From Thalassolituus hydrocarboniclasticus (GTDB taxonomy: Bacteria; Pseudomonadota; Gammaproteobacteria; Pseudomonadales; Oceanobacteraceae), in contig NZ_CP054475.1 of assembly GCF_025345565.1 (NCBI RefSeq), positions 3,233,129 to 3,265,128 of the forward strand: DNA of 32,000 nt. The letters are read 5' to 3'. Below are positions 8,106-22,928 of this stretch, one piece after another (within the stretch, counting starts at the first letter, position 1; every line of letters begins with the position of its first letter). Under the pieces are notes generated by a model. The model was not told where the DNA came from, ran no database searches, and worked only from the letters and a program-made list of their open reading frames with translations. The translations under genes and the position numbers were made by a program.

Positions 8106-9842
8106 TCAATAGTAGCTGAGAATCTCTTTGATACCCGTATTCTGTTCAACCTCAACCGATTTATGTACTGTTTTTACCGGTTTAACAATGGCATCCCGGC
8201 CCAACTTATAACTTTGCTCTTTGACGACCACCTGATAAGCCTTATTAAGCATCAGGGCACGTTCTGGCTCCGGCAAAAGCAAGTGACCGATATTCTCAGA
8301 CAGTTTTTCAAATTCCTGTAACTTAGGGCTTCGGTCGTCATTAAAGAACTTATTCAGGACTTCTTTATTATCACGGAATTCATTACCGCTTGGGTTTTGC
8401 TCAAGATAATAAGCATACTCGCCGCGCCCATCCTCACGCATGGGATCAGCGACACCTTCGAGTCCTTTTTCCAGCCAGTGATACCAGCCATTGCGGAAAC
8501 TTCCATGATCAAACTTACGGAAAAATGAAATAGTAGTGTCATTCGATGCGCCGATATAACCGTGACATCCGGTACAGAAATACGTTTCTTCGTAGGTCTG
8601 AGGACGTAACTGACCGGCATCATCCTCAATAAAACCCTGATATGTCCATCCCTGAGCAACCGTTAATCCGGACTCCATATTTCCCAGAGCAACTTTAGTA
8701 CGCCATGGAAAGTCGTGACGTTCTTTAATTTCATCATTAACAATACTGCGTAACTGATAGTAGTTTCTCCAGGAGTTCTTTCTGGAGTAACGCACTTCTT
8801 TCATGCGTCTGGCCATGACAACTTTGCCATTGTTAACGTCCAGGTAGCGTACAGTATGAAGAAACTCAGTACCTTCAGGGTATAAGCGTGCTGCCAGATG
8901 AATGTCACCCTGCTCCAGAAGCTCCTTAGCCTGACCAACATAACTCATCATACGGTTTTCTTTTGGCGCCCAGTCATACTTAATGTATGTCGCCTTAGAC
9001 AAGGTTCCATTTTTATCCAGATCAACGCCATATAACGTTTCGTCAGTTTTTTCGATCGGAATATCTTTTTCCTTTATCAGTGATTCGACAATGGCAAAGT
9101 TAATTCTGTAAGCCAGCAGATCAAATTCTCCGTCTTTATTACGGCGAAAAGCTTCCGGAAGCCGGATCATCACATCATCCGTCGAACCGTTCGTTGGCAT
9201 AAAAGTTCCCAGAAACGGGTAATAGGCAAATACTCGCCAGCCGGTATATTCACCTGCCGGCGAGACATCAAAACCCTGTTCATCAAAAGAAAAATATGCA
9301 TCAGGGATATAACCATCCCAACGGCCGTTTTTATTACGGTCCCATTCTTTTGGCAGGTTGTTCAGTTTGGCAGCCAGGATAATACCGCCATTATCAGAGA
9401 AGTAGTTATCTTCTCTGACGTAATTAATAATCTCCTGATCTGAAACGTTAGCAATATCGTCTGTGCGATCTTTAAACAGATTATCCCAGTTGTTTTTCAG
9501 CCCTGTTTCAGGGAAGTTATAGCCGACCTGAACATCGGTATCATTAAGATAATTCGGTCGTTTACTTTCGGTATGACACGCATAACAAGGATTCTGAACT
9601 CCCTGTTCAGAAACCGGGTCGGTATAACATTGTGGCGGAATGTAAGCCACAGGATTATCCGTAGCATCAGCAGTAAGATCAACCAGTGTGCCGAAGGTAT
9701 AGCCAGTGGCAACCGGGTTGGTTTTATTAGCCGCAGCGGAATCATCCGCCGACATCATTGATCGCTCACCATCAGACGATGTAAAACAACCAGATAAAAA
9801 CAGGGTAAACCCGCCAACCAACAACAATGAGTGTGTTTTCAT
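8106..9842 (-). CDS. Lipoprotein with two c-type haem-binding (CxxCH) motifs, otherwise unknown family
   Basis: 578 aa with signal peptide plus canonical lipobox LSGC. CYACH is encoded at 9573-9587 and CTGCH at 8562-8576. Both were verified on the DNA by reverse complement (ccttgttatgcgtgtcat and ttctgtaccggatgtcac). Confidence 0.7.
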   Translation of the reverse strand: MKTHSLLLVGGFTLFLSGCFTSSDGERSMMSADDSAAANKTNPVATGYTFGTLVDLTADATDNPVAYIPPQCYTDPVSEQGVQNPCYACHTESKRPNYLNDTDVQVGYNFPETGLKNNWDNLFKDRTDDIANVSDQEIINYVREDNYFSDNGGIILAAKLNNLPKEWDRNKNGRWDGYIPDAYFSFDEQGFDVSPAGEYTGWRVFAYYPFLGTFMPTNGSTDDVMIRLPEAFRRNKDGEFDLLAYRINFAIVESLIKEKDIPIEKTDETLYGVDLDKNGTLSKATYIKYDWAPKENRMMSYVGQAKELLEQGDIHLAARLYPEGTEFLHTVRYLDVNNGKVVMARRMKEVRYSRKNSWRNYYQLRSIVNDEIKERHDFPWRTKVALGNMESGLTVAQGWTYQGFIEDDAGQLRPQTYEETYFCTGCHGYIGASNDTTISFFRKFDHGSFRNGWYHWLEKGLEGVADPMREDGRGEYAYYLEQNPSGNEFRDNKEVLNKFFNDDRSPKLQEFEKLSENIGHLLLPEPERALMLNKAYQVVVKEQSYKLGRDAIVKPVKTVHKSVEVEQNTGIKEILSYY

Positions 9843-11848: not shown

Positions 11849-12523
11849 TCAGTAACGCCGTACCTGGACCACCACACGACGATTAGCAGCACGCTGCTGT
11901 TCAATTGTCTGGGCCTGATCCACTTCTTTCGGTCTGCTGTCAGCAAAGCCTGACGCCTTAAGACGTTCCTTGGCAACGCCCTGACTCATCAGATATTTAA
12001 CCACATGGGTCGCTCTGGCTGCTGATAATTCCCAGTTGGAGGGAAATTGCTCATTGGCAATGGGAATATCATCAGTGTGACCTTCCACTTCAATCATATG
12101 TGTTTCGTGGCTGGTATCGCGGATAATCGCGGATACCTTTTCCAACAGGGGAACTGCATCGGCTTTTAAATCGGCGGAGCCGGAGTCATAGAGTGCAACG
12201 TTGGCAAACTCCACTTTAACCCCTCGCTGATCAAGGACCACCGACAACTGATCCTGCAGGCCATTCTGCTCGATATAATCATCCAGCGCTTTTTTAATAT
12301 CGGTAAAGGGCGTTGTTTGCTGTCGATCTGTCATTACCGTCGACAATCCTTCCTGCAGCGCTTCTACTTTGCCCTGATCGATATCAGAGACCGACAGAAT
12401 CATCACAAAAAAAGCCAGCAGCAGCGTAATGGCATCAGAATAAGTGATAAGCCAGGAACTGGAGGAATCGTCAAAATTAGGCCGGCGACGGCGCAGGCCA
12501 CGACGCTTTAACGCATCATCCAC
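11849..12523 (-). CDS. MotB/PomB-like stator subunit (plug/TM plus OmpA-like peptidoglycan-binding domain)
   Basis: 224 aa with a GTG start preceded by GGAGG at 6 nt. The TM segment SWLITYSDAITLLLAFFVMILS carries the conserved channel Asp, encoded at 12434-12436. The C-terminal OmpA-like motif is VEGHTDDIPI...FPSNWELSAARATHVVKYL...NRRVVVQV. Confidence 0.85.
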   Translation of the reverse strand: MDDALKRRGLRRRRPNFDDSSSSWLITYSDAITLLLAFFVMILSVSDIDQGKVEALQEGLSTVMTDRQQTTPFTDIKKALDDYIEQNGLQDQLSVVLDQRGVKVEFANVALYDSGSADLKADAVPLLEKVSAIIRDTSHETHMIEVEGHTDDIPIANEQFPSNWELSAARATHVVKYLMSQGVAKERLKASGFADSRPKEVDQAQTIEQQRAANRRVVVQVRRY

Positions 12524-12546
12524 GGCATGCCTCCGGGTATATCAGC

Positions 12547-13347
12547 TCAGAGTTCTTCATCGGCAAGCTGCAGACGAACCGATGGTTTAAGAAAGGCATT
12601 CAGCCTGTCCTGAATAAACAAGGCATCACGCTTTTCCGCCAGCATAACGAAACCTTCGGTAATCAGCTGATGGCGGTAATAAAGTGCTTCCTGTTTTTCC
12701 GTAACCTGATTGGCTGCCGGTTTAAAAAATAAATTCGCCAGTACCACACCATAAAGCGTGGTAATTAATGCCAGCGCCAGCCCCTGACCTAACCCGGCCA
12801 TATCACCGTTCAGGTTATCCAGCATGATAATCAGACCAATAATCGTGCCGACCATACCAAAACCCGGAGCGTAGGTTGCCATGGTATTCAGCACCTTGGA
12901 TTCCAGCGTATGCCGCTGCCAAGTGGCATCCATGGCATCACTCAGCATTATGCGGATTTCGTGGTTTTTATAACCCGAACCAATCAGCTCCATCGCATGA
13001 CACAGGTATTCGTCTTTACTTTCTTCTTTATTCAGACTCTGCTCAAGGGCACTGATACCACCCTGACGATACAGGTTGCTCCAGTCAACAAAGCGGCTAA
13101 CCAGTGTGCGCAAATGCTTTTGCGATGTCGGAGTATGAAAAAAAGTCTGCACCATACTACGCATAGCAATCAGAACATCACCGCTGCTGTAGCTGATCAG
13201 TGAGGCCGCTAACGTACTGCCCAGTACCAGCGCCAGACTGGAAAGACTCATAAATATCTGGTGATGATCCGTACTGCTGACGATGGCAAATGCAAACAGG
13301 CTGATACCGGCGCAAAAGCCGATCAGGGTGCTGAATGAAAACATCAT
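12547..13347 (-). CDS. MotA/PomA-like stator subunit
   Basis: 266 aa with 4-TM MotA topology. It is collinear by eye with Vibrio PomA (YRQGGISALEQS vs ARKGGFLALEEM; YAPGFGMVGTIIGL vs VAPAMGMIGTLVGL; ALITTLYGVVLANLFFKPAAN vs ALLTTLYGAILSNMVFFPIAD). Its ATG abuts the stop codon of the upstream gene (TAAATG). Confidence 0.85.
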   Translation of the reverse strand: MMFSFSTLIGFCAGISLFAFAIVSSTDHHQIFMSLSSLALVLGSTLAASLISYSSGDVLIAMRSMVQTFFHTPTSQKHLRTLVSRFVDWSNLYRQGGISALEQSLNKEESKDEYLCHAMELIGSGYKNHEIRIMLSDAMDATWQRHTLESKVLNTMATYAPGFGMVGTIIGLIIMLDNLNGDMAGLGQGLALALITTLYGVVLANLFFKPAANQVTEKQEALYYRHQLITEGFVMLAEKRDALFIQDRLNAFLKPSVRLQLADEEL

Positions 13348-15255
13348 TTATTCCTGCCCCTGCGACTGTTTAGCAATAGGCGCCAGCTCTTCCATAGAGA
13401 AACGTCCGGCTTTCAGTACATCACGCATTTTCTGTACAACCTGTTTGCGTCCGGCTTCTACCGTTTCCTGAGCAATATCTGCTTCGGTTGTTTTAAGCTC
13501 TGCAATAACGGCTGCGCGCAATTTAGCAGGCAAGGCTGCCAGCACATGGCGTTTAAATTCCGTTGATGTATGACATAAGGCAGCGGCCAGAACACCGCGA
13601 TCTATATCACGCAGCTCATTCGCCAGTACCCGCTCCGGAGCGCGGGCCATATCGGCAAAGGTAAAATAGACCTGACGCAGTCGATAATAGGTTTCCGGCT
13701 TTTCACCTTTTAAGGTTTTCAGTAAGCGGGTTTCTTCAGCACTGTTCATGTTATCCAGCATACGTATCAGTACCGACAGGCCATCGGCACTGATATTCTC
13801 GAACGTTGGCACCGACAGTGACGCCTGTGCCAGACGGTCCGCCACGTCGCGGAAAGCAGAGACAGGGAGCGTATCGAACTGGCCGAGTTCATAAGCCACC
13901 GCCGCCTGATCTTTTTCTTTCATGCGCTGAATAATATCAGCAGCCCGTTCAGCCGGGAGCTGCGACATAACCAGAGCTTTGATGCGGGTATCCTCATCTT
14001 TAATCAGATACAGCACCTGTGAATCATTGAGTTTCTCCAGAAACGAAAACGGTGAATTACCCGCCGAGTTATCAGCTAAGCCCTGCTGAAGACGCTGCTG
14101 GAAAGCACTGAGTGATTGCAGCAACATCTCATTGCTCCAGTCAGTTTCGCTGCGCTGCTGCTCCAGCTCCTGCCACTCGGTACCGGTTAATGCGGGAACA
14201 AGGCTGCGCAATAACGGCTTACCCATCACTTCAAGCATTGCCGCTGCTTCAGAATACTGCTGTCGCTGCAGTCCCTGTTGCACCAGCTGCTGGAATAACT
14301 GTGGCTGAGACAATCCGGATGAAACCAGCGCCTGACGCACTTCATTAACCTGCCGTTTCAGTTCAACCTGCTGGTCATTTTCCTGTGCAACCACGGCACG
14401 ATTATCGCTATAACCGGTATCGGAACTTGCAGTTAAAGGAGCACTTACTGCAGGAATCATCCGGCGGCCTAACGCACGCATCCCGAAACCAATCACCAGC
14501 AATACCAGTAAAAGTGAAGCAAGCCAGAACCACAGCGCGTATTCATCCCAGATACTGAGCACAACAGGTTTTTCATTCTCCAGACGTTTAAATTCGGTAC
14601 GGACAATATTCAGCGTATCGCCACGTAATTCATCCAGCTGGGACTTGCGGGTAATCAGGTTACGCAGGAATTCAACCTGTTCATCATTCAGGGTACGGTC
14701 CACAACCAGAGTGATGGTCATTTTCTTGATGCTGTTGCGAAAGCCCAGTGTTTTCTCACGAATGGTCTGAATTTTGGTTTCGGCTTCCTGTTTCAGCTGG
14801 TCGGCATAATTGAGCACATCGGTACGCTCACGCTCCAGCTGTTGCACTTTATTCTGCAGCGCCTGAATTTCCTGCTCGTTTTCTTTCAAAAGCGGAAGCT
14901 CATTAACCGGAAGGCCTGGCAATGCTTCCAGCTCATTGTCATCAAAGGTTTTGATCGTACGTGGACGGATTTCCGCGACTGGCTGACGCACAGGAGGCTT
15001 AGGTAAAGCAGACCCAGGCGATGCCGGCTCATTGCTTTTCACCATAGTTCGGGTCTTTTGCAGTGTTGCTTCGACCTGAATAATAAAGCGGTTATCGCCC
15101 AGGTAAGATTTGATATCCCGTGCCAGACGCGCTTCCATTTCATTCTTAAAGCGCGCCTCTTCCAGATCATCTTTTTTAACAGGCACTTCATAAGCCTGCT
15201 CTTCTGCAACAACCAGAAGAGAGACAAAGCAAAGTAAGACAGTAAGAATTCTCAT
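13348..15255 (-). CDS. Bitopic membrane protein: FliF/YscJ-like ring-building motif (periplasm) fused to FliG-like middle and C-terminal domains (cytoplasm)
   Basis: The track ORF starts at a TTG (15261). I prefer the ATG at 15255, which has AGGAG 6 nt upstream overlapping the upstream stop codon. The N-terminal signal/TM is followed by RLARDIKSYLGDNRFIIQVEATL and MTITLVVDRTLNDEQVEFLRNLITRKSQLDELRGDTLNIVRTEF. The latter compares with Salmonella FliF LSVAVVVN...LTADQMKQIEDLTREAMGFSDKRGDTLNVVNSPF. TM2 is encoded at 14479-14541. The C-terminal 230 aa or so (13387-14055) are collinear with FliG_M and FliG_C. Confidence 0.7.
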   Translation of the reverse strand: MRILTVLLCFVSLLVVAEEQAYEVPVKKDDLEEARFKNEMEARLARDIKSYLGDNRFIIQVEATLQKTRTMVKSNEPASPGSALPKPPVRQPVAEIRPRTIKTFDDNELEALPGLPVNELPLLKENEQEIQALQNKVQQLERERTDVLNYADQLKQEAETKIQTIREKTLGFRNSIKKMTITLVVDRTLNDEQVEFLRNLITRKSQLDELRGDTLNIVRTEFKRLENEKPVVLSIWDEYALWFWLASLLLVLLVIGFGMRALGRRMIPAVSAPLTASSDTGYSDNRAVVAQENDQQVELKRQVNEVRQALVSSGLSQPQLFQQLVQQGLQRQQYSEAAAMLEVMGKPLLRSLVPALTGTEWQELEQQRSETDWSNEMLLQSLSAFQQRLQQGLADNSAGNSPFSFLEKLNDSQVLYLIKDEDTRIKALVMSQLPAERAADIIQRMKEKDQAAVAYELGQFDTLPVSAFRDVADRLAQASLSVPTFENISADGLSVLIRMLDNMNSAEETRLLKTLKGEKPETYYRLRQVYFTFADMARAPERVLANELRDIDRGVLAAALCHTSTEFKRHVLAALPAKLRAAVIAELKTTEADIAQETVEAGRKQVVQKMRDVLKAGRFSMEELAPIAKQSQGQE

Positions 15256-15264
15256 CAGCAACTC

Positions 15265-15966
15265 CTACTGCTTCAGCCGGTCAAGGCTGGCCTTGACCTG
15301 ATCAAGACTGGGATCAAGTTTAAGCGCCTGCTCCCAGCTGGAACGGGCTTCCGGCAACAGGCCCATCTTGTAATAGATACTGCCTTTTAATGCATGCGCC
15401 TGAGCGGAATCCGGTAAATTATCGAGTGCTGCATTGGTTTCATCCAAAGCCTGCCAATATTGTTTTTTATAGAATAATGACTGGGCATTGAGAATGTGCT
15501 TAGTGGTATTTTCAACCCTCTGATTTTTGTTTTTTTCCTGCTGCTGAGCATTCTCATTCAGATTTTCATGAATTTCTTCAGCCGTCTTATCATCCAGCAT
15601 TTCGGTTATGTCTTCGTCGGCCTCCTGAGGTATTTCTGCTTCTGGCTGAACCGTCTTACCCGGCAGATCCATGACGAATTTCACGTCACTGTCACCGGCA
15701 TCCAAAGTCAGCAACACATCGTAACCATCACCATAACGGTGAATATGCATCAGGCCATGCTGTTTTTTGGCTTGCTCAGCGATTTCAGATTGTTTCTGGA
15801 TTTCTTCTTCTACAACCTCTGTTTCAGATACCCAGCCGGAATTACCATAACCTTTAACCACTTCATTAGTACGCTGATAGCTACAGGCGGCAGGCAAGAT
15901 AAAAACACTCAGGCTTAACAACCGGAACATCATGCGTACCTGGCATTTTACGCAGAATTTCATCAT
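15265..15966 (-). CDS. Secreted (possibly lipidated) TPR-repeat protein with an acidic linker
   Basis: 233 aa. The signal peptide MMFRLLSLSVFILPAAC has a non-canonical lipobox. The true start may be the internal Met at about 15933. An acidic low-complexity middle precedes C-terminal TPR repeats (YWQALDETNAALDNLPDSAQAHALKGSIYYKMGLLPEARSSWEQALKLDP). Its start overlaps the upstream stop (TGATG). Confidence 0.72.
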   Translation of the reverse strand: MMKFCVKCQVRMMFRLLSLSVFILPAACSYQRTNEVVKGYGNSGWVSETEVVEEEIQKQSEIAEQAKKQHGLMHIHRYGDGYDVLLTLDAGDSDVKFVMDLPGKTVQPEAEIPQEADEDITEMLDDKTAEEIHENLNENAQQQEKNKNQRVENTTKHILNAQSLFYKKQYWQALDETNAALDNLPDSAQAHALKGSIYYKMGLLPEARSSWEQALKLDPSLDQVKASLDRLKQ

Positions 15967-17036
15967 CAGAAACGTACCCCCAGCGTCAGGTCATAACTTG
16001 AACCGCCGAATTTCCCAACCTCTTCATAACCGTCTTTTTTATCCCAGCGGGCATCGACTTCTGGCAGGTAGGTGACGCCAAAATCCATAAAGCCATCACT
16101 GAAAAACGGGAATTCAAATCCAAAGCGGAAGATAAGGGAGTTGCTGTCATTGAAGAAGGCCTGCCCCATGCCCAGATACACCCGGGTATCGATCAGCTCA
16201 TCCATACTTGGAATATCGGCAATAATCCGGCCCTCGAGATTTATTCCTGATACGTTAAATAAATCGGTACCGGAGAAATTTCGGAAATATTCAATCGCCA
16301 GAGTATATTCCAGACTGTCATCAATACTGGTGGTTTCACGCCGGCGCAGACCAAATACAGTTACGCCATTAACTTCTTCAGAGCTGCCATCTGTCAGGTT
16401 TTTCCGGCTGCCATCAATCCCCCAGGCACCCACTGTTAATTCATAGTTAACCGCATCGAATCCCTGCTCTTCCTGTTCACGGGTCGTTATCTTCGAATAT
16501 TCCTTAAGCCACAACAGCTGATTATTCCGGCCGTCAACCATGCGCAGGTTGATGGTAAATTTGTCTTCGTGTACTGAAGCATTCCAGAAAATAAAAGCAT
16601 CCGCGCGCACGTGTTTGGCCAGAGCCCGGAGAGCCTGATTGGATTCTGCTGCGTGGGATATTTCCAGCTTATCGGCACGCATCGCTACCTGTGTAGTCCG
16701 GCACTCAATACACTGAATAACCTCAAAGCGTCCGCTATCCATAATCCGGTGCATCAGTTTATTTTCAATCATCAGATGCACCTGCTTGGGAATCTGACGA
16801 TGGAGACGATCACCATTATGATAAAGGGCAACACGGCGGATATTGCTGTCCAGATCGATAAGTTCTTCCAGAACCAGCGTTTTATCATCATCCAGCAATT
16901 GCCCGAAACCGGTATATAAAGAGGGGGCCGGTGAACTCAGTGGCAGCTCGGTTTTGTTATCGGCACAGGCCAGAGAGGGCAGTAACAGCAGGCTGATAAT
17001 CAGCGATAGCTGTTGGAATAGCGTCGGGGAGTTCAT
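15966..17036 (-). CDS. Signal-peptide protein: periplasmic alpha/beta N-domain plus outer-membrane beta-barrel-like C-half
   Basis: 356 aa with signal peptide and an AxA cleavage site (LACA/DN). The C-terminal half has alternating hydrophobic beta-strand patterns and ends in ...YDLTLGVRF. A terminal Phe is typical of BAM substrates. The RBS is AAGGA, 6 nt before the ATG. Confidence 0.6.
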   Translation of the reverse strand: MNSPTLFQQLSLIISLLLLPSLACADNKTELPLSSPAPSLYTGFGQLLDDDKTLVLEELIDLDSNIRRVALYHNGDRLHRQIPKQVHLMIENKLMHRIMDSGRFEVIQCIECRTTQVAMRADKLEISHAAESNQALRALAKHVRADAFIFWNASVHEDKFTINLRMVDGRNNQLLWLKEYSKITTREQEEQGFDAVNYELTVGAWGIDGSRKNLTDGSSEEVNGVTVFGLRRRETTSIDDSLEYTLAIEYFRNFSGTDLFNVSGINLEGRIIADIPSMDELIDTRVYLGMGQAFFNDSNSLIFRFGFEFPFFSDGFMDFGVTYLPEVDARWDKKDGYEEVGKFGGSSYDLTLGVRF

Positions 17037-17354
17037 TCAATATCCTTTCGTCAGGAGTCCTGATTTTTCTCCCTCCAGCTTAGTTCATATTTCAGAAACT
17101 GAAGTTTTCGCCAGCACTTATTCCGTTTACTTAACATGAGTTAAACAATCAGCACTTTAATACCTTTACTGATTCGCCAATTTTTTTACGGCAAATACCG
17201 CAGACGGGCGCAGATATCCAGCCTCTCTGTTTCCTTCATTTGCAGAACTTTTAAAACAGTGAAAATCTGCCTTTTTTCTGGCGATTTATTCTCGAAAAAG
17301 CGACAGAAAAACATTAAATCGTTTTTGTTCGTACAATCAGACTCAGTTCAGAGA

Positions 17355-21249: not shown

Positions 21250-22110
21250 TTACGCCAGCAATGAAGCGCGGATCCTGACGCGTAAAGGTGTCGCCAGCTG
21301 CAACAGCATACGATCCCGTAACCAGAGCGGGCGCAGGTCGTCAGGCAGCTGCGGCTGCAGTACTTCCTGACAGGTCAGAACCTCTTCCAGAGCATCCAGA
21401 GCCGCCAGTGAATAGTGCTGTGGCGAGGCAGAGAAAATATCCGCCAGATGCCCGGCCGCTGCCAATAATTGTTCACCTTCTCCGCCGCTATGGGTATTTG
21501 CCAGCAACCAGCCACTGAATGCCAGCGCAACATGCACATCTTCCCAGTAGCGGAAAGGCTTATTCAGCTGACGATGAGCATCATGGCAACGGTAGGCCGA
21601 GGTGATGTTTACATTGGTGAAGCGTACCGGGGTATGGGGAACATCCGCTAAGAAAGGCTGCTCTTTACGCGCAGCCAGAACTTCAATCCCTGTCGCATCT
21701 ACCGCTACCTGCACACACAGCAGATCATCATCGCAGGCAGCAACCACATACAGCAGGTCGAGCCCACGGCTGGCCAGCATGACATGGGATTTTTCGCCAT
21801 TCAGACAGGAAGTTTGTGCGTCAAAGCGGGTCTGCATCTGCCGCAAAGAACGTAATCCGGCTTCAGAGATACAGAATGCCGCCCAGGCGTCGGCAGCAAG
21901 TTGCGGATCAAGCTGACGCATCGCCGCCTGATAACCGCAGAAAAACGCAGTGCCCGGCGTCGCCGCACGCTGACCGTATTGCCAGGCGACTTCTATGGAT
22001 GTGAGGGTGCAGAAAGAATTGGCAAGCTCACGCCGCAGCTGCGCCGCATCCTGCTCAAGAGACAGGCGTGGTGCCGTAGCACCACGCTGACATAATGCGG
22101 ACAGCGGCAT
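21250..22110 (-). CDS. Hypothetical protein with a divergent acyl-CoA-dehydrogenase-like middle domain
   Basis: 286 aa. LNGEKSHVMLASRGLDLLYVVAACDDDLLCVQVAVDATGIEVLAARKEQPFLADVPHTPVRFTNVNI resembles the ACAD beta-barrel domain pattern (G.K.w.s....d...v.a......f.v....G..v.......v.F.dv.v). It is too short to be a full ACAD. Its start overlaps the upstream stop (TAATG). Confidence 0.45.
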   Translation of the reverse strand: MPLSALCQRGATAPRLSLEQDAAQLRRELANSFCTLTSIEVAWQYGQRAATPGTAFFCGYQAAMRQLDPQLAADAWAAFCISEAGLRSLRQMQTRFDAQTSCLNGEKSHVMLASRGLDLLYVVAACDDDLLCVQVAVDATGIEVLAARKEQPFLADVPHTPVRFTNVNITSAYRCHDAHRQLNKPFRYWEDVHVALAFSGWLLANTHSGGEGEQLLAAAGHLADIFSASPQHYSLAALDALEEVLTCQEVLQPQLPDDLRPLWLRDRMLLQLATPLRVRIRASLLA

Positions 22111-22928
22111 TATTGTGCGCCGCCACCCAGCGCATTCTGAATGCGGTCCAGACGGATCTGAATATCTTCAATTTCCAGCTTCATATCGGCCAGATTACCG
22201 CCAGCGCCACTCTGACGCATCTTGGTCATAGCCGCTTCCAGAGACTGAATAGACTCGGTGTTCTGCGCCACGCGCAGCTCCGTTTCCGCAGGCATCGACA
22301 GCACCTGAGCTTCGACTTTGGCTATCTTCTTCTTCAGGTCAGCAATACCAGCATCCAGTTTCTTCTGTAATGCAGCATCGCTTGCTGCCAGAGCTTTCTG
22401 CTGTTTGTCATTGCTGGCCTTCAGTTCTTTATCCAGACCGGCCAGCGATCCTTTTAACGACGTGATGGCTTTTTCATTGCTGGCGATATCAGCCTTATTA
22501 CGCTTATTCGCCACATCCCAGAGTTTACGGATTTCGGTATCGTGTTCTTTGATAATTACTTTCAGAGCATCCAGCGACAGGTTGGCATTTTCACCAGTAA
22601 CCGACAGTTTCTCATTCAGCACATTAATATTGGCAGCCTGGCTTTTCAGCAGTGCTTCAGCATTGGCAAACTGTCCCTGCAGAGTCTGTAACTGCGTAAA
22701 CAAAAAGGCGGCCAGACCACCCATTGCCACAGCAACGACCAGCGCCACAACAGCCAGCGTCTGTTTCTGTACTGGCGCGGCTACAGTCGCTGCAGCCGAT
22801 GGACCGGCTTTTGCCGCTGCTGCACGCTGGGCCGCAATACGACGAGCCTGCAACTGCTTCTGACGCAGGGCAATATCTTCCTGCGATGGCTTCATATCCG
22901 GCACCAGTGGTTCTTTTTCTTTATCCAT
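22110..22928 (-). CDS. Single-pass membrane protein with a long periplasmic coiled coil
   Basis: 272 aa. It has a basic Ala-rich N-terminus, one TM segment (LAVVALVVAVAMGGLAAFLF), then about 190 aa of heptad-like Ala/Lys/Leu/Gln sequence. I recognised no family. Confidence 0.55.
   Translation of the reverse strand: MDKEKEPLVPDMKPSQEDIALRQKQLQARRIAAQRAAAAKAGPSAAATVAAPVQKQTLAVVALVVAVAMGGLAAFLFTQLQTLQGQFANAEALLKSQAANINVLNEKLSVTGENANLSLDALKVIIKEHDTEIRKLWDVANKRNKADIASNEKAITSLKGSLAGLDKELKASNDKQQKALAASDAALQKKLDAGIADLKKKIAKVEAQVLSMPAETELRVAQNTESIQSLEAAMTKMRQSGAGGNLADMKLEIEDIQIRLDRIQNALGGGAQ

Follow-up and report, generated by a model that had tools for sequence, protein, structure and literature searches.

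The window analysed here is a 32,000-nucleotide stretch of the genome of the marine oil degrader Thalassolituus hydrocarboniclasticus (contig NZ_CP054475.1) that carries, on its minus strand, an operon of five tightly coupled genes, g1 to g5, spanning positions 17036–11849 (Table 1). Direct reading of the sequence confirmed both the coordinates and the four junctions given in a preliminary description of the locus: g1 and g2 share one base in TGATG at 15966, the Shine-Dalgarno sequence of g3 overlaps the g2 stop codon in TAGGAG with the ATG 8 nt downstream, g3 and g4 abut in TAAATG, and GGAGG lies inside the 23-nt gap before g5. A TTG start at 15261 would yield a g3 product of 637 aa; the NCBI protein (P0001) has 635 aa. 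The operon is flanked by Pterin_4a and class I fumarase genes upstream and by PhoX downstream. A domain scan took in the products of all five genes together with 20 further open reading frames of the window, and no flagellar, export-apparatus or chemotaxis family was found among those 20, which bears out the earlier statement that the Pterin_4a and PhoX neighbours are unrelated and that the window holds no further flagellar gene. The species description of T. hydrocarbonoclasticus, which we take to be a variant spelling of the host name, describes cells that move by means of one polar flagellum (PMC9807766), and the operon is therefore an extra system.

Table 1. Features of the five-gene operon and its upstream region, in positions of the window.
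Feature	Position	Strand	Description	Basis
g1	15966..17036	minus	356 aa, secreted, SPase-I-type signal peptide; predicted outer-membrane component	ORF
g2	15265..15966	minus	233 aa, TPR lipoprotein	ORF; TPR repeats C-terminal
g3	13348..15255	minus	635 aa from ATG, natural FliF(RBM3)–TM–FliG fusion, presumed rotor subunit	ORF, profiles, structure, alignments
g3 periplasmic domain, aa 20–225	14581..15198	minus	RBM3-like alpha/beta module split by insertion	Pfam, AlphaFold, Foldseek
g3 single TM helix, aa ~240–263	14467..14538	minus		AlphaFold helix
g3 FliG-like cytoplasmic part, aa ~289–620	13396..14391	minus		Pfam, Foldseek, alignment
g4	12547..13347	minus	266 aa, MotA/PomA-type stator A subunit	ORF, Pfam, NCBIfam, PDB alignment
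g5	11849..12523	minus	224 aa, GTG start, MotB/PomB-type stator B subunit	ORF, Pfam, NCBIfam
Conserved upstream block GTTTCTGAAATATGAACTAAGCT	17059..17093	minus	candidate promoter or operator	

The block upstream of g1, GTTTCTGAAATATGAACTAAGCT, contains a sigmaE/AlgU-like GAACTA-N17-TCAGG element that ends 22 nt before the g1 ATG, and its T.A.CTA.GCT columns are invariant across 7 orthologous upstream regions. The sigmaE/AlgU-like pattern matches twice in the window against 0.09 matches expected, a figure to be read with a pattern written after the site was seen; a generic sigma-70 scan gave no excess. From these sequence features we tentatively regard the block as a promoter or operator.

The last two genes encode a stator-like pair. 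g4, a protein of four TM helices whose torque-generating insert is cytoplasmic, matches Pfam MotA_ExbB (E 1.1e-23) and finds flagellar stators as its top NCBIfam matches (MotP 5e-48, PomA 8e-38, MotA 3.5e-38), against 1e-3 for TolQ and 0.06 for ExbB among the non-flagellar models. It aligns over its full length with the PDB stators 8ucs, 6ysf and 8bri, and R88 and E96 of PomA align with R94 and E102 in its insert. g5 combines a channel aspartate (Asp30), a plug (Pfam MotB_plug, E 9.8e-15) and an OmpA-like peptidoglycan-binding domain (OmpA, E 5.4e-18); its top NCBIfam match is MotD (8e-53, under cut-off), and all stator and FliG matches of the operon proteins score under the NCBIfam equivalog cut-offs. 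D30, W24, Y28, N163, S167 and A171 of g5 are invariant (38/38), as is P210 of g4 in the 38 sequences compared, where R94 is kept in 32 and E102 in 33. Judged by sequence, all stator essentials are present in the pair: D30, the plug, the peptidoglycan-binding motif and P210.

Between the stator pair and the secreted proteins lies g3, which consists of a signal peptide, a FliF RBM3-like periplasmic domain, one TM helix and a FliG-like cytoplasmic part. The FliG and FliF/YscJ homology proposed earlier for this protein was recovered with Pfam profiles (FliG_M, E 1.3e-15; FliG_C, E 4e-14; YscJ_FliF_C at aa 52–224, E 4.7e-5, 24.3 bits where the cut-off is 23.8), and AlphaFold and Foldseek agree. The periplasmic domain of the AlphaFold model matches the FliF RBM3/S-ring (7cg7, 6sd3, 8z4d; Foldseek probability 1.0, E ~1e-3) and runs beta-alpha-beta, insertion, beta-alpha-beta, the 'RBM plus insertion' layout of ring-forming FliF RBM3, so that the small FliF-like ring module of the preliminary description stands as FliF homology and is narrowed to an RBM3-like module only. 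Its insertion holds a disordered Pro-rich stretch, LPGLP at aa 112–116 and a helix of ~40 residues (aa 122–164), and an RGD motif follows at aa 211–213. The cytoplasmic part comprises a helical N-region and the armadillo domains FliG_M and FliG_C; YFTF is its equivalent of the MFxF hinge, and K578 and E586 lie in the counterpart of the torque helix. The model aligns with full-length FliG over 310–330 columns (Foldseek E 1e-9) and with FliG_C at a TM of 0.88 and an rmsd of 1.6 Å. At residue level g3 was aligned with Aquifex and Thermotoga FliG; through the T. maritima alignment, K578 and E586 occupy what we take to be the positions of R281 and D289 in E. coli FliG.

Clustering of the g3 family at 50 % identity (E<=1e-30) gives at least 164 clusters. 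Among 146 new representatives inspected, nearly all full-length proteins share the order signal peptide, ~200 aa periplasmic domain, one TM, FliG M+C, and almost all full-length members have one strong hydrophobic segment at the TM-equivalent position. Of 191 family members, >95 % retain LPG, >90 % RGD and 171 an R or K at position 578. At each of the 27 gammaproteobacterial loci compared, position 586 is acidic. EHPQR, the motif that binds FliM, is not conserved in the alignment of g3 with FliG, nor is EHPQ across the 191 members, a loss consistent with a cassette that lacks FliM/FliN. Retention of the FliG-contact residues, claimed earlier, holds for the gammaproteobacterial lineage (R94/E102, K578/E586) but only partly for Fibrobacterota, in which g4 position 94 is K or Q, position 102 is variable and the rotor acidic residue of g3 has apparently moved to position 588. 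Documentation of an electrostatic interface of the MotA–FliG type is thus confined to the gammaproteobacterial branch.

The first two genes are predicted to encode two dedicated outer-envelope proteins, as had been suggested, and their nature can now be refined. g1 has an N-terminal alpha/beta domain that is weakly FlgO/FlgT_M-like; its C-terminal half is rich in beta structure and finishes, in the manner of outer-membrane proteins, with Phe. FlgO is matched by 6 of 11 g1 family members (best E 6.9e-4, all under the Pfam cut-off) and OMP_b-brl by one (E 0.031). Every g1 orthologue has a signal peptide, and all end in F except that of locus L013, which ends in L. The protein is homologous to a ~355-aa protein without Pfam domain in the Fibrobacterota cassettes (hhalign probability 97.4, E 1.2e-11); a sequence search found no PDB relative, and a single-sequence AlphaFold model was unusable (pLDDT 34). 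g2 carries TPR repeats (Pfam TPR_1, E 1e-7; TPR_2, E 2.5e-7) behind the lipobox ILPAAC, with Ser after Cys28, and a lipobox Cys ends the signal peptide in every g2 orthologue listed, in both phyla. Its matches in NCBIfam are weak ones to PilW, Tgl and PrsT-type TPR lipoproteins and stay well below cut-off. We predict that g1 is an outer-membrane component and that g2 is a lipoprotein of the same membrane, which may serve g1 as a scaffold or pilotin.

All five genes occur together in 37 independent loci of Oceanospirillales and Fibrobacterota, answering the question of neighbourhood conservation raised with the first description. The order is g1-g2-g3-g4-g5 in Oceanospirillales, g3-g1-g2-g4-g5 in eight Fibrobacterota loci and g1-g2-g4-g5-g3 in locus L057; at two variant loci (L048, L060) g3 has no adjacent stator. 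The cassette neighbours pyrG/eno, rpoBC, tyrS/trpS-type synthetases, PhoX and similar unrelated housekeeping genes. Among the loci examined it never lies inside a flagellar locus, and the flanks contain no flagellar structural or export genes, in keeping with its description as a stand-alone cluster. Compared with T. pacificus, the four genes with estimable dS have dN/dS of 0.02–0.08, values indicative of strong purifying selection on the operon, and together with the recurrence in 37 loci this places the association far beyond chance. No system of the same composition was found in the literature searched, Pfam, NCBIfam or PADLOC, as the preliminary description had presumed, and the recurrence of the cassette outside flagellar loci in two phyla speaks for an ion-driven envelope machine of an undescribed kind.

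What the analysis shows, namely the homologies and domain architecture, the conservation of catalytic and contact residues and a five-gene set shared between phyla, supports the earlier interpretation of the operon as an envelope-spanning rotary or PMF-transducing device. With guarded confidence, we think it probable that the operon encodes a flagellum-independent, ion-driven rotor–stator machine made of homologues of the flagellar torque core and connected with a complex in the outer membrane. In it, g4 and g5 would assemble into ion-driven stators of the MotA5B2 type, presumably with 5:2 stoichiometry, which the OmpA-like domain of g5 would anchor to peptidoglycan and its plug would gate. 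In the cytoplasm, the g4 insert would engage the FliG_C-like domain of g3, in which covalent fusion would stand in for the non-covalent FliF–FliG link, while the RBM3-like domains would oligomerise into an inner-membrane ring turned by the stators. A periplasmic collar (LPGLP, RGD, the long helix) would then couple this movement to an outer-membrane complex of g1, with its FlgO-like domain and predicted barrel, and the TPR lipoprotein g2. Such a machine has no FliM/FliN switch, export gate, rod or filament, and its output would therefore be some outer-envelope process and not a propeller. As the host is flagellated, there may be cross-talk between the machine and the flagellum.

The likeness to the flagellar core extends to the full length of the solved stators, with channel Asp, plug, peptidoglycan domain and R/E pair, and, for g3, to the FliG fold, the torque-helix equivalent, the MFxF-like hinge and the FliF RBM3 layout. 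The cassette differs in that hook and chemotaxis genes are also absent, its matches stay under the equivalog cut-offs and it is never found in a flagellar locus. Unlike FliF, g3 has a single TM and one RBM, without RBM1, RBM2 or beta-collar, the last replaced by the helical disordered insertion; unlike FliG, it has no EHPQR. Engineered FliF–FliG fusions (Salmonella; Vibrio, PDB 8z4d/8z4g) likewise join the MS-ring protein covalently to FliG, and a PDB chain of this kind is among the sequence matches of the g3 C-terminal half. One report describes such fusions as assembling rings (PMC6079021). These are laboratory constructs of full-length FliF and FliG (945 aa in PDB), whereas g3 is natural, has 635 aa and retains an RBM3–TM2-like FliF half only.

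The same parts could serve a non-rotary force transducer of the Tol/Ton type, in which a spinning g4 pentamer would grip the FliG_C domain of a few g3 copies acting as adaptors, like TolA/TonB or GltG/J, without a rotating ring; the g3 periplasmic domain would be pulled or cycled onto the g1/g2 complex, for gating, lipoprotein release or envelope maintenance. To our knowledge, all other non-flagellar 5:2 motors use a periplasm-spanning adaptor and not a large rotor. Tol-Pal (TolQR–TolA–TolB–Pal) and Ton (ExbBD–TonB) are, like this one, stand-alone operons in which a 5:2-type ion-driven inner-membrane motor is paired with a periplasmic partner anchored in the membrane, alongside outer-membrane or lipoprotein components, and by analogy an outer-envelope energising logic is likely common to them. 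The single pass of g3 through the membrane, its disordered Pro-rich stretch and its long periplasmic helix recall TolA/TonB, and the dedicated partners g1/g2 and the possible envelope-stress-type promoter also speak for a transducer. We nevertheless consider it unlikely, if worth serious attention: the g3 periplasmic domain resembles the ring-building FliF RBM3 and not the TonB/TolA C-terminal domain, TolA-, TonB-, TolB- and Pal-like domains are absent, the stator is of flagellar type, with a large torque-generating insert and the E values given above for TolQ and ExbB, and g5 has the MotB-type plug and peptidoglycan anchor of stators docking round a rotor. Tol-Pal and Ton, moreover, engage their partner through a TM helix inside the motor, the operon presumably through a cytoplasmic FliG domain. 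The GldLM/PorLM (type IX secretion, gliding) and AglRQS–Glt (Myxococcus gliding) systems also use MotAB-superfamily motors, placed in the non-flagellar 'GIT' group (PMC12505986), to drive outer-membrane-associated machinery across the periplasm; they have no FliG- or FliF-like component, and none of the five proteins matched their families in Pfam or NCBIfam.

That the operon is an accessory of the host's polar flagellum, supplying alternative stators and scaffolds that dock onto the canonical motor, like MotCD, MotXY, FlgOPT or PflAB, appears improbable, even though the host is polar-flagellated, flagellar stators are the nearest relatives of g4 and g5, and g1 is weakly FlgO-like, FlgO being a component of the Vibrio H-ring. 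The TPR protein g2 invites a similar comparison, as one report describes high-torque motors as also scaffolded by TPR proteins (PMC12054838). g1 and g2 resemble FlgO and FlgP as a pair of outer-membrane protein and lipoprotein, and several g1 members match FlgO and FlgT_M under the Pfam cut-offs; g1, however, is longer than FlgO, has the beta-rich C-terminal half and is not encoded with flagellar genes, and the operon has no FlgP or FlgT homologue. g3 already has a signal peptide, a TM helix and an RBM3-like ring module of its own, and an extra FliG, without the EHPQR needed for FliM binding, has no obvious place where FliF already binds FliG. The cassette never adjoins flagellar genes, and the same five genes co-travel in Fibrobacterota, including MAGs of Fibrobacterales, whose cultured members are non-flagellated as far as we know. 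A Zorya-type anti-phage or conflict system (ZorAB with ZorC/D or ZorE) would likewise place a MotAB-like 5:2 motor, here as envelope sensor, in a compact non-flagellar operon; the cassette is compact too and has variable flanks, and PADLOC ZorB models match g5 (E 1e-19) and ZorA weakly g4 (E 3e-4). We give this very little credence, since the matches reflect generic MotAB homology, g4 has no long ZorA tail, ZorC/ZorD-like, nuclease, helicase or other effector genes are absent, the flanks are syntenic housekeeping genes and not a defence island, and the operon is vertically conserved across Oceanospirillales with low dN/dS. Matches below every equivalog cut-off might suggest a flagellar gene set, once duplicated or transferred, that is now decaying and functionless, an idea we find scarcely credible. 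The reading frames are intact with coupled translation signals, dN/dS is low and the catalytic residues are invariant, and the retention of the five-gene set in two phyla strongly opposes decay.

A five-gene operon on the minus strand of the window (g1 to g5, see table) encodes a real, conserved five-component system that is derived from the core of the flagellar motor and is apparently uncharacterised so far. It comprises a secreted, predicted outer-membrane protein (g1), a TPR lipoprotein (g2), a FliF(RBM3)–TM–FliG fusion (g3) and the A and B subunits of a MotA/PomA- and MotB/PomB-type stator (g4 and g5). We refer to the same gene set in any genome as the cassette. The preliminary description, made from the sequence alone, had read the operon as a minimal envelope-spanning device built from flagellar motor parts, and homology, domain architecture and the conservation of the five-gene set support this reading. 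All five same-strand open reading frames are present together with the junctions it described: a TGATG in which one base is common to g1 and g2, a g2 stop codon lying within a TAGGAG Shine-Dalgarno sequence with the ATG of g3 8 nt further, a TAAATG at which g3 and g4 abut, and a 23-nt gap with GGAGG ahead of g5. The neighbours are indeed unrelated, with pterin-4a-carbinolamine dehydratase and class I fumarase upstream and PhoX downstream, and a scan of the 20 other open reading frames of the window found no flagellar, type III export or chemotaxis family.

Coordinates of the operon genes and of further features in the window and in other family loci
Feature	Sequence	Coordinates	Strand	Remarks
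g1	window	17036..15966	-	356 aa
g2	window	15966..15265	-	233 aa
g3	window	15255..13348	-	635 aa counted from ATG
g4	window	13347..12547	-	266 aa
g5	window	12523..11849	-	224 aa, GTG start
Conserved block upstream of g1	window	17059-17093	-	its GAACTA-N17-TCAGG ends 22 nt ahead of g1 ATG
Open reading frame between PhoX and nucleosidase gene	window	8106-9842	-	578 aa
Two adjacent open reading frames	window	21250-22928	-	286 and 272 aa
Partial type II secretion cluster	window	24554-28147	-	gspN, gspC (PDZ domain), gspD secretin
Cassette of a distant relative	L057	6392-12010		29% identity to g3
Ammonium transporter–MCPsignal fusion	L007	14568-16814		748 aa
Genes around a 710-aa g3	L048	571-6097		
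Genes around a 789-aa g3	L060	2053-7827		

The last two genes encode a stator of the flagellar PomAB type. The g4 protein carries a MotA_ExbB channel domain (Pfam, E 1.1e-23) with four TM helices and a large cytoplasmic torque-generating insert bearing an Arg/Glu pair, and g5 combines a MotB_plug (E 9.8e-15) with an OmpA-like domain (E 5.4e-18). Both the channel residue Asp30 and the peptidoglycan-binding motif N163/S167/A171 of g5 are invariant in 38/38 orthologues. End-to-end alignment of g4 with solved MotA and PomA structures places R94 and E102 on PomA R88 and E96, the residues in contact with FliG; they are kept in 32 and 33 of 38 g4 orthologues, respectively. The best NCBIfam matches of g4 are all flagellar stators (MotP 5e-48, PomA 8e-38, MotA 3.5e-38), compared with E 1e-3 for TolQ and 0.06 for ExbB among the non-flagellar models. 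Yet none of the flagellar stator models (MotA, PomA and MotP; MotB, PomB, MotD and MotS) reaches its NCBIfam equivalog cut-off, the best being MotP for g4 (163 bits versus 394) and MotD for g5 (180 bits versus 283). Since all scores lie well under the cut-offs, g4 and g5 constitute a divergent branch of flagellar-type stators rather than orthologues of a named one.

The partner of this stator is the fusion protein g3. Profile search finds FliG_M (1.3e-15) and FliG_C (4e-14) and, across residues 52–224, a marginal YscJ_FliF_C match (E 4.7e-5; 24.3 bits versus a gathering cut-off of 23.8); PF08345 is precomputed for many members of the family. An AlphaFold model built with 17 homologues (mean pLDDT 71.8) begins with a signal peptide, continues with a beta-alpha-beta / beta-alpha-beta module into which an insertion is placed, and then shows a single TM helix (residues 240–263), a helical region and two FliG armadillo domains. 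Within the insertion, an LPGLP motif stands between a disordered Pro-rich stretch and a 40-residue helix. Foldseek comparison of the model with the PDB agrees with the profiles: it finds full-length FliG (E 1e-9), matches the FliG_C domain, FliG from the MotAB–FliG complex 8ucs included, with a TM of 0.88 and an rmsd of 1.6 Å, and matches the N-terminal part to many FliF RBM3/S-ring structures (probability 1.0, E about 1e-3). The FliG and FliF/YscJ homology first proposed for the 635-aa protein is thus recovered by both approaches. Given the domain order, the model and the structural matches, we regard g3 as a natural fusion between the RBM3–TM2 half of FliF and a FliG-like protein.

Among known systems, the flagellar rotor–stator core comes closest, but several of the features that define FliG, FliF and the named stators are missing, and the cassette is therefore filed under none of them. 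FliG is a soluble protein of ~330 aa whose N-domain binds the C-terminal tail of FliF; g3 departs from this definition, since it is a membrane protein of 635 aa that has both signal peptide and TM helix, and it scores 60.7 bits against the TIGR00207 cut-off of 226.7. The FliF MS-ring, a ring of about 33–34 subunits, has two TM helices, RBM1 and RBM2, and a beta-collar. No match to PF01514 (YscJ_FliF, RBM1/RBM2) was found in g3, which has one RBM-like unit only and an insertion that is disordered and helical, not beta as in the collar. The EHPQR motif of FliG_M binds FliM. At this position g3 reads DEDTR, and the H, P and Q positions are unconserved among 191 family members, a loss that fits a cassette without a FliM/FliN switch. 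The hinge reads YFTF where FliG has MFxF.

Residue alignment of g3 with FliG places K578 at the position of R281 and E586 at that of D289, in what we take to be E. coli FliG numbering carried over through the T. maritima alignment. Comparison of 27 gammaproteobacterial loci shows R94 and E102 of g4, and K578 with an acidic residue at 586 of g3, in every one of them. In Fibrobacterota, g3 keeps a basic residue as R578, g4 has K or Q at position 94 and a variable residue at position 102, and a conserved acidic residue appears two positions further along the g3 helix, at 588. Position 94 of g4 and positions 585/586 of g3 show a covariation of charge that is suggestive and not clean, with few independent events and with the Fibrobacterota acid seemingly at 588. 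The proposal that the FliG-contact residues are retained therefore holds for the gammaproteobacterial loci and only in part for Fibrobacterota. Judged from these alignments, a MotA–FliG-like electrostatic interface is well supported as a prediction for the lineage of the window and less clear for the distant Fibrobacterota branch. Two periplasmic motifs of g3, LPGLP (residues 112-116) and RGD (211-213), rank with the best-conserved positions in the family as a whole: across the 191 members LPG is kept in >95% and RGD in >90%, outdoing the charges of the cytoplasmic torque helix.

Two outer-envelope proteins are predicted to accompany the motor parts, as the first reading had it. The g2 protein has C-terminal TPR repeats and a lipoprotein signal peptide that ends in Cys in every orthologue listed. 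The g1 protein combines a leader of the signal peptidase I type with a C-terminal half rich in beta structure, and its C-terminal residue is Phe in all orthologues but one, a terminal aromatic residue being the usual signature of outer-membrane barrel proteins. Its N-terminal domain gives weak matches to FlgO (PF17680) in 6/11 family members (best E 6.9e-4, all below 22.6 bits) and to FlgT_M in 3/11, also below threshold. Because every match is below threshold, the FlgO likeness is a lead rather than a family assignment; neither flgP nor flgT lies beside g1. PDB sequences searched by profile gave no relative of g1, and its single-sequence structure model was unusable (pLDDT 34).

When all of 1.84 billion representative proteins were scanned by HMMER with the g3 profile, 164 clusters at 50% identity reached E<=1e-30; a search of genome contigs with the single protein gave four close relatives, and a profile built from 40 distant family members matched 3 proteins. 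Among the 146 new representatives inspected, nearly all full-length ones have ~600 aa with a signal peptide, ~200 aa, one TM helix and FliG M and C domains. Named sources are Thalassolituus, Oleispira, Bermanella, Oceaniserpentilla, Bacterioplanoides and unclassified Gammaproteobacteria, joined by Fibrobacterota/Fibrobacterales and one MAG labelled Deltaproteobacteria. All five genes are found in 37 of the 63 loci fetched, and most of the others end at a contig edge. The order is g1-g2-g3-g4-g5 in Oceanospirillales and g3-g1-g2-g4-g5 in eight Fibrobacterota loci, whose ~355-aa protein without Pfam match hhalign identifies as a homologue of g1 (probability 97.4, E 1.2e-11). A third order, g1-g2-g4-g5-g3, occurs in the distant relative L057 beside ispA and dxs, which indicates that the five genes stay together through rearrangements. 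The flanks vary by lineage (PhoX, pyrG/eno, rpoBC, aminoacyl-tRNA synthetases, beta-oxidation genes), and neither the window nor the flanks of 10 Pfam-annotated loci contained a flagellar structural or export gene. The five-gene set is thus conserved outside flagellar loci, with three gene orders among unrelated flanks.

We propose that peptidoglycan-anchored, plug-gated MotA5B2-type units of g4 and g5 would turn ion flow into rotation of the g4 pentamer, whose cytoplasmic insert would push the FliG_C domain of g3. The RBM3-like domains would assemble g3 into an inner-membrane ring turned by the stators, and the g3 insertion may form a periplasmic collar through which the movement reaches the outer membrane, where g1 and the lipoprotein g2 would form a complex. 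Taken as a whole, this stator-driven relay seems to us somewhat probable. Engineered FliF–FliG fusions indicate that a covalent link is compatible with ring assembly (PMC6079021), and one such fusion, PDB 8z4d, is among the sequence matches of g3. In the main rival to the ring, the same parts would be used with g3 as a low-copy TolA/TonB-like adaptor and no rotor. The Tol-Pal, Ton, GldLM and Agl-Glt systems resemble the cassette in concept, with an outer envelope powered by a 5:2 motor, but their motors are non-flagellar and their adaptors are different. None of the five operon proteins matches a TolA, TonB, TolB or Pal family in Pfam or NCBIfam. We consider the adaptor unlikely, if a serious contender.

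The cassette could also be an accessory of the host flagellum. Thalassolituus hydrocarbonoclasticus, which we take to be the host species under a variant spelling, is described as motile by a single polar flagellum (PMC9807766), so a complete flagellar regulon must exist elsewhere in the genome and the operon is additional to it. However, g3 has its own ring and TM module and lacks the FliM-binding motif, and the cassette stands alone in Fibrobacterota. An accessory role is accordingly rather improbable. Stators of the MotAB/PomAB kind drive a flagellum and are encoded or co-regulated with flagellar genes; in the window and the Pfam-annotated flanks, g4 and g5 have no flagellar structural or export gene beside them. 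We give very little credence to a Zorya-like role in defence: Zorya pairs a ZorA having a long cytoplasmic tail with ZorB and with ZorC/D or ZorE effectors, whereas the ZorA match of the 266-aa g4 (E 3e-4) extends over about 75 residues only, and effector genes are absent. Least credible of all is a non-functional relic, against which stand the dN/dS values relative to T. pacificus of 0.078 for g1, 0.057 for g3, 0.027 for g4 and 0.019 for g5.

Returning to the stator-driven ring, the cassette may be the first non-flagellar machine that joins a FliF/FliG-type rotor with a MotAB/PomAB-type stator: a rotary ring standing by itself in the inner membrane, driven by ions, linked to an outer-membrane complex of its own, independent of flagella and widespread in uncultured Gammaproteobacteria and Fibrobacterota. 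We regard this as quite possible, if a little short of probable, and see a substantial chance that the cassette is a truly new non-flagellar rotary machine. Passages of a 2025 survey of MotAB homologues assign stators with a torque-generating insert to the flagellar clade and, as far as searched, make no mention of the cassette (PMC12505986). A proteomics paper on F. succinogenes names only ExbB/TolQ-type proteins, and Cavalier-Smith 2006 treats other MotB relatives. In the literature searched, we found no description of the cassette.

To our knowledge, all work so far on the FliG–MotA interface and on the FliF ring has been in the context of the flagellum. A stator with the insert, a membrane-anchored FliG/FliF fusion and outer-membrane proteins, without axle, export gate or switch, would show a second cellular use of them. 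Having five genes, and no type III export apparatus among them, it would offer a simple means of studying torque generation and transmission, and for flagellar origins it makes directly testable whether the motor core works alone. If the rotary ring is real, the torque-generating module of the flagellum is a device separable from it, or was at some time, and the cassette could be an exaptation of this module or the living kin of a stage that preceded the flagellum. Abundant marine hydrocarbon degraders (Thalassolituus, Oleispira, Bermanella) are among the hosts, as are Fibrobacterota, and we speculate that the output of the cassette may matter for life on insoluble substrates.

Several further observations concern the surroundings of the operon. 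A block upstream of g1, GTTTCTGAAATATGAACTAAGCT, has columns T.A.CTA.GCT invariant in 7 orthologous upstream regions. It contains a sigmaE/AlgU-like GAACTA-N17-TCAGG, a pattern written after the site was seen, so that its statistic is weak; conserved as it is, the block could place the operon under envelope-stress control. Scans of the window for generic promoters and terminators stayed at background level, and Rfam gave no match in it. The partial type II secretion cluster lies ~7.5 kb upstream, and a link with the operon was rejected because this neighbourhood is missing from the Fibrobacterota loci and from L007, the non-syntenic lineages. The 578-aa open reading frame has no Pfam family above threshold, its sole match being a faint Cytochrome_P460 (E 9e-4). 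The pair of 286 and 272 aa has no Pfam match; open reading frames alike in size and position occur at the same syntenic place upstream of the cassette in other Oceanospirillales loci.

Some family loci depart from the five-gene pattern. In L048, a ShlB/FhaC-type two-partner-secretion outer-membrane transporter (POTRA_2 and ShlB) comes directly after g1, g2 and a 710-aa g3, with no stator genes in the 5.7 kb downstream. L060 has a g2-like lipoprotein, a 430-aa protein without Pfam match that weakly matches the g3 profile, a 789-aa g3 and then a Sel1-repeat protein, with no adjacent stator and no recognisable g1. In L007, from a metagenomic gammaproteobacterium, an ammonium transporter fused to a methyl-accepting chemotaxis signalling domain (MCPsignal) lies ~1 kb downstream of the cassette and carries the sole chemotaxis-type domain in the cassette flanks.
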